A stretch of 52,365 nt of DNA from an uncultured Anaerolineaceae bacterium (GCA_964353875.1 CAYGXU010000004.1:12937-65301); one strand, 5' to 3'; counted from the stretch's first letter, positions 1 through 3,974 are shown. Numbers and translations are program-made. The notes: generated by a model not told the origin, from the letters alone.

Positions 1-117
1 ACTCCATCTACCAATAGCAAGCTATTGCACTCCATCTACCAATAGCAAGCTATTGGACTCCATCTCCCAATAACAGGCTATTGCACTCCATCCCCCGGCG
101 GAAGACATTGGACTCCA
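1..117. repeat. Decaying 28-bp tandem repeat (ACTCCATCTACCAATAGCAAGCTATTG[C/G]), about 4.2 copies, cut by the window start
   Basis: Units at 1-28, 29-56, 57-84 (degenerate), 85-111 (very degenerate), partial 112-117. Units 1-2 contain the palindrome CAATAGC-AA-GCTATTG. Confidence 0.9.
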
Positions 118-131
118 CTTAGCGAATGATG

Positions 132-170
132 CCCTACTCCCTGGCGGGAGAGGGGGTCAGGGGGTGAGGG
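132..170 (+). repeat. BoxC/REP-like extragenic palindromic element
   Basis: CCCT-A-CTCCC-TGGC-GGGAG-AGGG hairpin followed by GGTCAGGGGGTGAGGG; resembles the widespread CCCTCTCCC...GGGAGAGGG...GGGTGAGGG repeat. Confidence 0.7.
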
Positions 171-184
171 TTTCCCCCCTCGAC

Positions 185-213
185 TTGACATCCCCAATAG
201 AAGCGATTAAACT
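185..213 (+). promoter_or_regulatory. Sigma70 promoter for the leader/ABC exporter operon
   Basis: TTGACA (185-190), 17 bp spacer, TAAACT (208-213). Confidence 0.8.
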
Positions 214-254
214 CAGCCTCGTTCTATCCATCCTACAGGAAGGAGGCGCACGAC

Positions 255-335
255 ATGATTAAGCTTGACTATACAGCAGTGCCGCGTGGCATGCTTATTA
301 AAATATGTGCTCGGAGTGCGCCTGTTGAACCTTGA
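255..335 (+). CDS. Putative 26-aa leader peptide MIKLDYTAVPRGMLIKICARSAPVEP (not in ORF track)
   Basis: AGGAGG at 241-246, ATG at 255, TGA at 333-335; lies between a promoter and an intrinsic terminator. Confidence 0.7.
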   Translation: MIKLDYTAVPRGMLIKICARSAPVEP

Positions 336-356
336 TCGCATAGTGGGTGAGTTTTC

Positions 357-393
357 AGCCACGGCGCGCTCCAGCGCCGTGGCTTTTTCTTTT
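357..393 (+). terminator. Intrinsic terminator / attenuator in the 5' leader of the ABC exporter
   Basis: 11-bp stem AGCCACGGCGC / GCGCCGTGGCT, 6-nt loop, then TTTTCTTTT; ends 24 nt before the ATG at 418. Confidence 0.88.
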
Positions 394-417
394 GTAAACT
401 GGACGGATTGAAGGAAC

Positions 418-2163
418 ATGAATCTTCCGATTAAAGCCTACTGGGACCTATTATCCCAGCATATTCGCCCACAGAAGGGACGATTCGCCCTGCTAACCGT
501 ATTGCTGCTGAGCAGTATTGGATTACGCATCCTCAACCCGCAAATTATGCGCCTCTTTATTGATGCAGCATTGGCGGGTGAAGCGCTAAAGCGGTTGACC
601 ACCGCCGCCCTGGCTTTTATTGGGATCGCCCTGTTGCAGCAAATCGTCGCGGTGGGCGTGACCTATTTAGGCGAAAATGTCGCCTGGACTGCCACCAACG
701 CTCTGCGGGCCGAAATGGCCTGGCATGCCCTCAACCTGGACATGCGCTTCCATCATGACCACACCCCCGGCGAACTGATCGAACGCATTGATGGCGATAT
801 AACCGAGATGGCTACCTTCTTCTCGCAATTTGCGGTCACCCTCGTGGGCAACTTGCTTCTCCTAATCGGCATCCTGACGGCGCTCTTTCTCGAAGATTGG
901 CGTGCAGGATTGGCGTTCACACTCTTTGCCATCATCGCTATTTTAGTCCTCAATCGAGTCAAAGATATCGCCCTGCTGCATCAAAAAGAGCGCAGACAGG
1001 CCGAAGCAGATCTGTTCGGTTTTATCGAGGAGCAATTGGCTGGCACGGAGGATATTCGCTCCAGCGGTGGGGTGGATTACTCCATTCGCGAACTTTATCG
1101 TTTGCAGGCTGCGATCCTACGCCATAGTCGTAAGGCACACTTCAAGAGGTGGATGATCGAAATTGCCATTGGCGCTTTCCTGGTGCTGGGTAATATTCTG
1201 GCCATGACCACTGGATATTTCCTCTTTATCGGTGGAGCGATTACCGTCGGTACGGTCTATTTGTTCGTCCATTACATTAATTTGCTGGAAGAGCCAATTT
1301 GGTCGCTTGTCCGGCAGGTTGATAGTTTCCAGACGATCGGGGCGTGTGTCCAGCGCTTGAATGAATTTCGCAGTTTCCAGCCTGAAGTGCGGGATGGCAG
1401 CCGGATGGAAATTGCCGGGCAATCACTGACTCTGACCTTCGATCAGGTTTCCTTTTCCTATAACGACACCGATCCGGTCTTAAACGACATCTCCTTCTTC
1501 CTCACACCTGGGACGAAGCTGGGCTTGTTGGGACGGACAGGCAGCGGCAAGACCACCCTGGCTCGGCTGGTGTTCCGCCTTTTTGATCCCACTGTTGGAA
1601 GAATCCTGTTGAACCAAACCGACCTGCGTGACCTGAAACTTGAAATTTTACGCAGAAATATCGCCATCGTGACCCAGAATGTACAGCTATTCCGCGCCAG
1701 CGTCCGTGATAACCTGACATTTTTCGATCGCAGTATTCCCGATGAGCGGATTTTGGAGGTGATCAATGAACTGGAACTTACGGACTGGGTTCTCTCCTTA
1801 GGAGAAGGGTTGGACACTCCACTAGGGACAAATGGACATAGTCTGTCCGCCGGGGAAGCGCAGCTATTGGCTTTTGCCCGCGTCTTCTTGCGAAATCCCA
1901 AATTGATCATCCTCGACGAAGCCTCTTCTCGACTGGACCCAGCAACCGAGCAGCATCTCGAACGCGCGGTTGAAAAATTATTACAGGATCGCACAGCCAT
2001 CATCATCGCCCATCGTTTGGGGACGCTGCATCGCGCCGATGAAATTATGATCCTGGAAGAGGGGTGTATCCGAGAATATGGCGATCGGTTATGGCTCGCC
2101 AGGGATCCTTCCTCGCAATTCTATCATCTGCTCCAAACGGGCTTGGAGGAGATGCTGGCATGA
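418..2163 (+). CDS. ABC exporter, fused TMD-NBD subunit 1 (heterodimeric multidrug type)
   Basis: N-terminal TM helices; Walker [10 protein letters not shown]; degenerate signature LSAGE; Walker B ILDE; H-loop AHR. Confidence 0.93.
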
Positions 2164-3974
2164 GTCACCTGAACGACACGAAAGCCGAGCAAAAAAGCAT
2201 CTCTGCACTACCCGCCTGGCGCGTCATCTTGAGCATGTTGAAATTCCGTCCGTGGTTCTGGTTCGTTGACCTGGTTTCAGTCGCTTTGTTTCGCTCAACC
2301 TGGCAGTTGATCCCCGGCCTGATATTACGCGCATTTTTTGATTTACTAACCGGAGAAGCCCAACTTCAAATGAGTATCTGGGCGATGGTTGCCTTGATGG
2401 TCGCGATGTGGTTGGGACGCGTATTGGGTGGGTACGGTTTCTACTATGCTGATGTGCCCATTTTTGCTGACATCGCCACTTTGCTGCGTAAAAATCTGCT
2501 CAGGCACATCCTTCGGCGTCCGGGAGCATCGTCTTTGCCCGATTCAGCCGGTGAGGCGATCAGCCGTTTCCGCAACGACGTCATGGAAATTCCTCTATTT
2601 GTCATCTGGATCAATGACATCATCACCGGATTGATGATCATTGCTATCTCGATTGGGCTGCTGGTTAGTATCAACCCGTCGATCACTCTCATGGCATTAG
2701 CGCCTTTGTTGATTGTTGGTTTCATCGCCAATGCTGCCTCCAACCGGATCGAACGTTACCGTCAGGCCAGCCGTCAGGCCACAGGCAAAGTGACCGGCTT
2801 TATTGGAGAGTTTTTCGGCGCCGTGCAAGCAGTCAAGGTGGCGACAGCGGAGAGGAATGTGATCGACCATTTTCACAAACTCAACGACCAACGCCGGATA
2901 TTGGCTCTGAGGGAAAGCCTCTTCAACCAGATTCTCGATTCAATCTACCACAATATGTCCACGCTGGGTACGGGTGTGATTCTGATCCTGGTTGGGCAGT
3001 CCATGCGAGTGGGCACATTCTCAGTCGGTGATTTCTCGCTCTTCGTTTATTTGCTTGGTACTATGGGCGAATTGACCACGTTTGCTGGGATGATCGCTGC
3101 CCGTTATAAACAACTCACCGTTTCGGTGGAGCGCATGTACCGCCTGATGGAAGATGCCCCGCTCGATGCGTTGGTCGAGATCAGCACAGTCGACCTGGAA
3201 GGACCTCCGCCGCCTGTCCTCTATCCTGCAGCGACCGAAGCGGATCGATTGGATAGTCTAGAGGCAACTGATTTAACCTATCGCTATGCTGGGACGGGAA
3301 ATGGCATTCAGGGGATTAATTTACGCCTTGAGCGCGGCACATTGACCGTCATCACCGGTCGCGTTGGTTCAGGGAAAACTACGCTGCTACGTGTGCTGCT
3401 GGGTTTGTTGCCGAAGCAAACGGGGGAAATCCGTTGGAATGGTCGCATCGTAAATGACCCGGGAGCATTTTTTGTACCTCCGCGCTGTTCCTATACTTCC
3501 CAGGTACCACGTCTCTTTAGTGATACATTGCGCAACAATATTCTTTTAGGCATGGAAAAGAATGATACCGAACTTCTCCGGGCTATCCACCTTTCCGTAA
3601 TGGAGCGCGATCTGGAGGCATTAGAAAACGGCTTTGAAACGATGGTTGGAGCGCGCGGCGTCAAACTTTCCGGTGGTCAGGCGCAACGCGCCGCGGCGGC
3701 GCGCATGTTTGCCCGCCAGCCAGAGCTTCTGGTTTTTGACGACCTATCCAGCGCCCTGGATGTCGAGACCGAACATCTTCTATGGCAACGTCTTTTTACC
3801 CAACAAGATGCTACCTGCCTGGTTGTATCGCACCGCAGACCGGTTTTACGACGCGCCGATCATATCATCGTCATGAAAGAGGGCAGTGTCGTGGCGCAAG
3901 GCTCGTTGAACGAGCTGCTAGAGACCAGCGATGAGATGCGCCAGCTATGGCAGCAGGAAATGAATGGTGGATAA
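2160..3974 (+). CDS. ABC exporter, fused TMD-NBD subunit 2
   Basis: Start moved to ATG 2160 (ATGA overlap, upstream GGAGG). Walker [10 protein letters not shown]; signature LSGGQ; degenerate Walker B VFDD; H-loop SHR. Confidence 0.93.

Follow-up and report, generated by a model that had tools for sequence, protein, structure and literature searches.

The window considered here is a stretch of 52 365 nucleotides (nt) on contig C4 in the genome of an uncultured Anaerolineaceae bacterium (GCA_964353875.1), an assembly of 229 contigs and 3.5 Mb that is 91.6% complete. Near the 5′ end of the window, a short leader precedes two adjacent genes for an ATP-binding cassette (ABC) exporter, and this leader appears to control transcription of the exporter by ribosome-dependent attenuation. 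The features involved are a promoter, a Shine–Dalgarno sequence (SD), a short upstream open reading frame (uORF), an intrinsic terminator, and three segments, E1, E2, and E3, that offer alternative pairings (Table 1). The whole analysis is comparative and computational.

Table 1. The leader and the exporter genes in the window, with positions counted from its first nucleotide
Feature	Position	Strand	Details
Promoter, sigma-70-type	185-190, 208-213	+	-35 TTGACA and -10 TAAACT, 17-nt spacer
SD, GGAGG	243-247	+	Overlaps E1
E1, 5′ strand of the anti-antiterminator, AGGCGCAC	244-251	+	Fused to the SD of the uORF
uORF	255-335	+	ATG 255 to TGA 335, 26 codons, peptide MIKLDYTAVPRGMLIKICARSAPVEP and stop
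E2, switch segment, GGAGTGCGCCT	313-323	+	uORF codons 20-23; partner E1 or E3
Small predicted hairpin, weak	331-351	+	Around and after the uORF stop, with the stop codon within its 5′ arm; from the fold of 300-373
Intrinsic terminator	357-393	+	Stem 357-367/374-384, loop 368-373, T-run 385-393
E3, antiterminator partner of E2	363-372	+	Terminator 5′ arm plus loop
ABC half-transporter 1, 581 amino acids	418..2163	+	ABC_membrane and ABC_tran; Walker B ILDEAS canonical, signature LSAGE deviant
ABC half-transporter 2	2160..3974	+	Likely start ATG 2160; ABC_membrane and ABC_tran; Walker B VFDDLS, signature LSGGQ canonical

The promoter has 10 of 12 consensus positions and ranks first among five promoter-like sites found by a scan of the first 5 kb; from its position, we infer a start of transcription near 220. 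The terminator has a perfect stem of 11 bp, nine of them GC pairs, a 6-nt loop, and the T-run TTTTCTTTT. It is by far the strongest of eight terminator-like sites in the 5 kb scanned, and the number of such sites is not above that in shuffled sequences (mean 5.0). The uORF ends 21 nt 5′ of the terminator stem, and 24 nt lie between the T-run and the exporter ATG, a gap in which the scan found no promoter-like site. A preliminary description of this DNA had placed a promoter, an SD with a 26-codon uORF, and a terminator shortly before the exporter in this region, and all of them are present where it had put them.

The same description had proposed that a heterodimeric exporter lies downstream, and the two half-transporters do indeed differ in their ATP-site motifs. 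In half-transporter 2, the Glu that follows Walker B is replaced by Asp, and the asymmetric pattern of VFDDLS/LSGGQ versus ILDEAS/LSAGE is one that we take to mark a heterodimeric exporter with one degenerate ATP site. Judged from these motifs, the operon encodes a heterodimeric ABC exporter of the BmrCD/TM287-288 type with one such site. The best bacterial relatives of solved structure are Sav1866 and TM_0288, and the nearest named relatives, at 69% and 66% identity, come from metagenome-assembled genomes (MAGs) of uncultured Anaerolinea and Anaerolineaceae. The ATG of the second gene is preceded by GGAGGAG and overlaps the TGA of the first as ATGA (2160–2163), which suggests translational coupling; a longer reading frame from GTG 2064 probably does not mark the real start.

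The three pairings that had been proposed for the leader can all be traced in the window. Along with the terminator stem, there is an antiterminator in which 313–322 pairs with 363–372 through 10 bp, one of them G-U, and this forms in the minimum free energy (MFE) structures of both 300–373 and 220–373. The core of the anti-antiterminator pairs 244–251 with 316–323 through 8 bp and forms in the MFE structure of the nascent prefix 220–326. Two inner extensions that had been added to this core (253–257 with 304–308, and 260–264 with 293–297) are present in the window but lie where the uORF varies in the family alignment, and so they are not a feature of the family. The terminator alone (346–395) folds with −25.2 kcal/mol. 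For the leader as a whole, the fold has a z-score of −2.09 and 5 of 200 shuffled sequences fold equally well, so that the support from the window fold alone is modest and the weight of the case lies in the conservation of the leader among orthologues.

The exporter is patchily distributed. At E ≤ 1e-100, 32 of the 301 genomes from the order have it and none of the 31 from the window's own family does; in a sister family, f14, it is carried by 122 of 401 genomes. The DNA upstream of 107 exporter orthologues from f14 served as the orthologue set, and the 85 distinct leaders that an initial script recognized in it were aligned with MAFFT (alignment A1). A covariance model of the E1:E2 pairing plus the terminator, R1, matches 102 of the 107 upstream regions, with E-values that are rough because the calibration was short. 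It misses L089, L107, L111, L146, and L171, and the contig of L146 does have a match, ∼1.1 kb farther upstream. In seven genomes of other families, the leader shares a strand with the orthologue and lies 2.4–6 kb upstream of it; in one of these (L200), a large protein with a GNAT domain is encoded between the two.

Sequence conservation within these leaders is concentrated in the elements listed in Table 1. The promoter, TTGACN-17/18-TA[ACG]ACT, is found in 96 of the 97 leaders with enough upstream sequence, 88 of which have TAAACT. In A1, the SD together with E1 reads AAGGAG(G)CGC(A/G)C(YTYC), the ATG of the uORF is invariant in the 85 leaders, E2 is nearly invariant as CG(G/A)AGTGCGCC, and the terminator 5′ arm with its loop (E3) reads GG(T/C)GC(A/G)C(T/C)(T/C)C. 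The small hairpin at the uORF stop is conserved too; of 137 leaders, 129 have it bracketing the stop codon. Neither sequence nor length is constant between E1 and E2.

Constrained folding had been named in the preliminary description as a check on the proposed switch. In the MFE structure of the prefix up to E2, the E1:E2 helix (P1) forms in 85/85 leaders. When the SD and start region that contain E1 are masked in silico, in the manner of a bound ribosome, 82/85 leaders switch to the antiterminator helix E2:E3 (P2). The full leader folds as P1 plus the terminator in 83/85 leaders, and in none of them does it take the antiterminator form.

Conserved pairing in the leaders of orthologous exporters had been proposed as a further check, and explicit pair counts on the alignments show all three helices paired in 88–98% of cells. 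For P1 in A1, 89.6% of cells are paired compared with 16–54% when the partner is slid, and for P2 the figure is 91.9% compared with 20–59%. For the terminator helix (P3), the figure is 97.9%, and 8 of its 11 pairs show double changes. A second alignment (A2) of 98 leaders, including 40 from other loci, was fitted to P1 and P3 and not to P2; P2 is nevertheless paired in 88.0% of its cells, against 27–45% when slid, while P1 reaches 89.8% and P3 again 97.9%, with double changes in 11/11 pairs. When the stretch from E2 to E3 in the 98 leaders was aligned with MAFFT, RNAalifold gave no consensus structure (energy 0).

Two variable columns within E2 are informative about how its partners change. 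At column 198 (G/A/U), the combinations with E1 are UA (34), CG (21), UG (12), and AU (7), and those with E3 are GC (30), AU (28), GU (7), and UA (3). At column 201 (U/C), they are AU (73), GU (13), and GC (12) with E1, and UA (54), UG (24), and CG (8) with E3. On a tree built without the helix columns, column 198 has changed at least 4 times and column 201 has changed 8–11 times. The loop of a terminator is normally free to vary; here both partners follow the changes in E2, and the terminator loop is thus kept complementary to it.

Further pyrimidine-rich motifs are found in most leaders. Just 5′ of the terminator, there is a tract (C)CTGTGTCTTT(T/C), for example in L083 and L095, in place of which the window has GGGTGAGTTTTC (∼343–356). 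This motif is unaccounted for by the three helices and is possibly a pause site or a protein site. A second tract, CCT-YCT-CG, lies 9 nt 5′ of E2 in most leaders and differs in the window (304–312); CCT is found in 72 and TCT/CCT in 74 of 118 uORFs, with little synonymous variation. Its sequence is anti-SD-like and could pair with the SD of the uORF.

The uORF is a conserved part of the leader. Under a looser SD rule than a requirement for GGAG, which misses leaders with AAGGAA, AAGGAC, or AAGGAT, an ATG-initiated frame with an SD spans E2 in 98/107 orthologous leaders and 38/40 leaders from other loci (136/147 together), and several of those counted as lacking a uORF have one when the rules are relaxed further. 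The median length is 23 codons in orthologous leaders and 27 in the others. The stop codon begins 9 nt past E2 in 71 leaders, as it does in the window, and 12 nt past it in 36, so that a terminating ribosome with a footprint of the usual size would cover the GC-rich 3′ core of E2. The reading frame itself is less strictly kept: among the 136 leaders, ‘RSAP’ is encoded in 117, frame 2 (ending EVRLLTV before the stop) is used in 16, and frame 1 in three, and the leaders in frames 2 and 1 still keep E2, the stop position, and the terminator. Since 16 leaders read the same nucleotides in another frame, conservation acts mainly at the level of RNA. Codon choice in the 118 main-frame leaders leads to the same view of the core, with Ala encoded by GCG in 118/118 and Ser by AGT in 109 and AGC in eight, and with the T/C change in the Ser codon matched in the RNA partners.

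The leader is also found in front of other genes. By BLAST and R1, the window's own genome has one copy only. In f14, R1 matches in 139/151 genomes, with up to five matches per genome and 268 in total; in the order it matches in 61/151 genomes and 14/18 families; and in a phylum-wide sample it matches in 8/151, all within the order, with 0/138 outside it. No R1 match was found in the fetched flanks of exporter loci L003–L037 from other phyla (Poribacteria, Gemmatimonadota, Latescibacterota, Kapaibacteriota, and others), or at any of the 12 loci recovered by a metagenome search with the exporter protein. A cmscan of 1–3000 against Rfam 15 at E up to 10 gave no match on the leader helices, in agreement with the earlier statement that the leader is not a recognized family; two chance-level matches, to sR1 and mir-150, lie off the helices.

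The genes served by the family were surveyed in 40 R1 matches that do not lie upstream of the orthologue, 35 of which were scanned with Pfam for downstream genes. All 40 sampled leaders match R1, and the promoter, SD with E1, E2, and terminator are visible in those whose sequence was inspected. In a first set (15 of 20 scanned), there are 11 pairs of ABC half-transporters of a second type, three clusters of 3–5 GNAT acetyltransferases, one of which ends in RtcB, and one RtcB. In a second set (20/20 scanned), there are 11 ABC pairs, five GNAT genes or clusters, two pumps with ABC_tran and ABC2_membrane, one RsgA with a RIO kinase, and one locus without a family. The second type of ABC pair is 30% identical to the first exporter gene of the window. 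The ABC-2 pumps resemble DrrA, with a score of 273.5 bits that falls short of the cut-off of 312, and RsgA passes its NCBIfam cut-off (TIGR00157, 229 bits vs 100); no NCBIfam model reaches its cut-off for the GNATs. By sequence comparison, the leader can be classed as a member of a multi-copy, order-wide family that also precedes other classes of gene.

Some members of the family carry additional features. Tandem terminators, with a second hairpin and T-run 15–40 nt past the first, are present at L181, L188, L191, L201, L204, L205, L207, L209, L210, and L211, where the leaders precede GNAT clusters, ABC-2 pumps, and some of the ABC pairs. In the second exporter type, a small gene of PF05635 (‘23S rRNA-intervening sequence protein’) lies between the half-transporter genes (L173 2185–2595, L174 2135–2527, L177 2268–2654). 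At the margins of the family, L053, from family f7 of the order, has a diverged leader (R1 31 bits) in which E1, E2, and E3 share a matching extra base (GGACGC/GCGTCC/GGACG). In L016, from a Chloroflexota MAG, an SD, an 18-codon uORF, and a hairpin followed by a T-run lie ∼400 nt upstream of the exporter, with no R1 match; L019, from a Latescibacterota MAG, has GGGAGTGCGCC together with a terminator. Leaders of an analogous kind may therefore occur outside the order as well.

Our preferred reading, to which we give a probability of about 0.72, is that the leader is a ribosome-dependent transcription attenuator that gates the two-gene operon for the heterodimeric ABC exporter. The preliminary description had come to such a leader-peptide attenuator from this single stretch of DNA, and the helices, the terminator loop complementary to E2, and the uORF with its stop position have all turned out to be conserved. 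What the sequences show in silico is the set of elements, how far they are conserved, and that their pairings exclude one another; that the uORF is translated, in which order the RNA folds, where a ribosome stalls, and what the signal is are inferred. Transcription would begin near 220, and E2, in the 3′ part of the uORF, would choose between E1 and E3. With no ribosome on the leader, E1:E2 would form first and the terminator would then stop transcription. With unhindered translation, the lead ribosome would reach the stop codon, 9 nt past E2, and would cover the GC-rich core of E2 while RNA polymerase makes the terminator, and transcription would again stop. With ribosomes held at the start codon or within approximately the first 15 codons, E1 would be masked or kept from E2, the free E2 would pair with E3, the terminator could not form, and the exporter would be transcribed. 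The input to such a three-state scheme would therefore be slowed or stalled translation. Most plausibly, the slowing would be caused by ribosome-targeting compounds, making the presumed signal an antibiotic, and an input of this kind fits the other genes that follow the same leader family. To judge from the gene names, a set that combines exporters and acetyltransferases with an RNA ligase and a ribosome GTPase suggests that the family responds to translation stress or to antibiotics.

Several points weigh against an attenuator of this type. On 220–395 of the window, the enforced OFF fold (E1:E2 plus terminator, −59.8 kcal/mol) and the enforced ON fold (−59.9 kcal/mol) are iso-energetic, and the unconstrained MFE structure of 220–400 is the antiterminator form, so that a basal OFF state would depend on kinetics. 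The earlier proposal that the absence of a ribosome gives termination would thus depend on the order of folding, with the prefix forming E1:E2 first, and not on thermodynamics. E1 lies upstream of the start codon, and its direct masking would be possible only by an initiating, very early, or queued ribosome. Covariation amounts to few independent events, with E2 otherwise almost invariant. In a tree-aware test, there are 1–3 independent pairs on supported branches and 4–11 on all branches; those on supported branches are too few for significance in a sign test, and within these small numbers the partner usually changes the same way or does not differ, and rarely the other way. Furthermore, all NCBIfam scores for the exporter fall short of their cut-offs and so point to no substrate, and the GNAT, RtcB, and RsgA genes suggest translation stress without proving it.

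Among other explanations, the one that survives best, although we consider it unlikely, is a nascent-peptide switch. The C-terminal sequence (I/N/L/V)-P-(S/P)-R-S-A-P-(V/I)-D-R would arrest in the exit tunnel and park the ribosome on E2, and a specific small molecule or cellular state would modulate the arrest, with general translation speed not being the signal. In the 118 main-frame leaders, S-A-P is nearly universal, Arg precedes Ser in 103, and Pro stands three residues before Ser in 82. The conserved Arg is written with five codons (CGA, CGG, CGT, AGA, and CGC), and with this diversity and the position of Pro, some peptide-level signal is possible alongside the constraint on RNA. RAPP-like C-terminal motifs, including RAGP and the partly permissive RSPP, are described as arrest cores in PMC12992588, but RSAP does not occur in the available text of that article. 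The leaders that use frames 2 and 1 tell against such a switch, as do the invariant Ala codon and the Ser codons that change with their RNA partners, all of which point to constraint on nucleotides, and the downstream genes are not components of the Sec/YidC machinery.

A ribosome-independent riboswitch or protein-binding leader, in which the uORF would be incidental, is very unlikely. Strong conservation of nucleotides in E2 and in the CTGTGTCTTT motif before the terminator would be expected of such an element, and alternative helices are typical of riboswitches. However, the permissive search of Rfam 15 found no candidate, there is no conserved multi-helix aptamer, and the interval between E1 and E2 is variable. 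The combination of SD, ATG, open frame through E2, and positioned stop in the great majority of leaders, across two frames, and the fusion of E1 to the SD are also at odds with an incidental uORF.

An attenuator specific for one amino acid or one tRNA, as in the trp, his, and leu operons, seems highly improbable. It would sense the shortage of a single charged tRNA, for example under attack by an inhibitor of an aminoacyl-tRNA synthetase that GNAT enzymes detoxify. Its three-segment logic is the same as that seen here, GNAT (Acetyltransf_3) clusters lie downstream of some leaders, and RimL-type GNATs detoxify aminoacyl-nucleotide antibiotics. The N-terminal two thirds of the uORF, which would be the ‘sensing’ part, is variable and differs widely among leaders; in the 118 uORFs it holds no run or cluster of any residue, which speaks against a sensor of one amino acid. 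Doubled residues are most often PP (15 leaders) or LL (14), the composition is unremarkable, and the controlled genes are not biosynthetic. We rejected this candidate on the composition of the uORF, which has no cluster of regulatory codons. Just as improbable is an independent small gene, for a small protein or a small RNA, with the exporter transcribed from another promoter or by leaky read-through: the leader does have its own promoter and terminator, and 100–230 nt separate the terminator from the exporter start in some orthologues, but in the window this gap is short and free of promoter-like sites, all 38 other leaders with an identified downstream family precede same-strand protein-coding genes of few classes, and the complementarity of E2 to the terminator arm and loop would have no role in a plain small gene.

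The DNA upstream of the leader has a repetitive character of its own. Positions 1–92 of the window hold 3.3 copies of a tandem array with the 28-nt unit ACTCCATCTACCAATAGCAAGCTATTGC, and the array continues upstream past a 100-N gap, where there are more copies (L001 1075–1216). Each unit contains the palindrome CCAATAGC-AA-GCTATTGG, and variants of the repeat have compensating changes in the stem (CCAAAAGC..GCTTTTGG, CCAACAGC..GCTGTTGG, and CCAATGGC..GCCATTGG). At up to two mismatches, the genome has 27 matches to the repeat compared with 0 for a reversed control, and arrays are also present on contig C18. From these properties, the array can be assigned to a REP-like family of hairpin repeats. 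By eye, the spacer and -10 of the promoter (191–213, CCCCAATAGAAGCGATTAAACT) resemble a degenerate copy of the unit, a likeness which suggests that the array abuts or has overprinted the promoter. The spacers of orthologous promoters are unrelated to that of the window.

Beyond the attenuator proposed for the window, the family invites a broader reading that is possible but that we hold only tentatively. One attenuator design might serve as a sensor of elongation rate, free of transcription factors, for an order-wide translation-stress regulon in Anaerolineae. This regulon would include two families of heterodimeric ABC exporter, the DrrA-like ABC-2 pumps, the GNAT clusters, RtcB, and RsgA. 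The C-terminal PSRSAP(V)DR, found almost universally, would contribute a pause of the SecM/RAPP type, holding the lead ribosome exactly on the switch segment and so securing the OFF state.

The leader is of practical as well as mechanistic interest. R1 provides a ready annotation model for hundreds of genomes, and the family points to genes that are probably switched on when translation is attacked in these bacteria of sediments and bioreactors, namely exporters, GNATs, RtcB, and RsgA. Within an order of Chloroflexota that is mostly uncultured, the family is well conserved and its three-helix logic is clear. The family also offers a compact, natural test case for how the length of a uORF, the position of its stop, and an anti-antiterminator embedded in an SD bear on the decision of an attenuator.

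Nearly all known attenuators of resistance genes that sense the ribosome are, to our knowledge, from Bacillota, with a few from Actinomycetota, and they are usually one-off leaders. Literature searches, judged from the search results, returned no description of such a leader in Anaerolineae or Chloroflexi. The precedent named in the preliminary description is the bmrB (yheJ) leader of Bacillus subtilis, and it is borne out by the published account, in which the multidrug-resistance ABC exporter bmrCD is controlled by ribosome-mediated attenuation (Reilman et al. 2014, PMC4191407). As described there, read-through needs translation of the leader and is induced by ribosome-targeting antibiotics, and the authors left the role of an anti-antiterminator open. 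Both systems place an attenuator before a heterodimeric ABC exporter, with a terminator, an antiterminator, and an anti-antiterminator in each. According to the same account, bmrB is an open reading frame of 53 amino acids that contains all three structures in its coding region (nt 60–162), whereas here the 26-codon uORF ends before the terminator, E1 lies upstream of the ATG and is fused to the SD, the anti-antiterminator is conserved, and the leader belongs to a multi-copy family that serves several types of operon. The leader is not of the bmrB-type architecture, a distinction drawn from the published description of bmrB rather than from its sequence.

Other well-known leaders share parts of the logic. 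In those of vmlR (PMC9226507), ermC, and cat-86 (PMC4191407), a short uORF is described as sensing a drug-stalled ribosome, with alternative RNA pairings that determine how far a resistance gene is expressed. In ermC and cat-86, as outlined in PMC4191407, the ribosome-binding site is freed and control is exerted on translation, whereas a terminator would be controlled here. Furthermore, the published examples are individual and drug-specific, in contrast to one design at up to five loci per genome with variable N-terminal peptides. The trp leader of Escherichia coli, as summarized in PMC4191407, has the same 1:2, 2:3, and 3:4 logic in coupled transcription and translation; the leader described here differs in having no runs of regulatory codons, in using an untranslated region close to the SD as segment 1, and in preceding exporters and stress genes. 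SecM, ApdA, and ApdP (PMC12992588) are likewise encoded by small reading frames with an Arg three residues before a Pro near the C-terminus, as in R-S-A-P here. Their cores are given in that source as R-A-G-P and R-A-P-P, whereas RSAP is followed by three more codons, the downstream genes are not protein-localization genes, and the peptide is dispensable in 19/136 leaders. With no RAPP, RGPP, RAPG, or RAGP core and with ABC exporters downstream, the uORF would fall outside the class of RAPP-like arrest peptides. The kind of system is known; its regulon-wide reuse and the embedding of the anti-antiterminator in the SD are notable features of this family.

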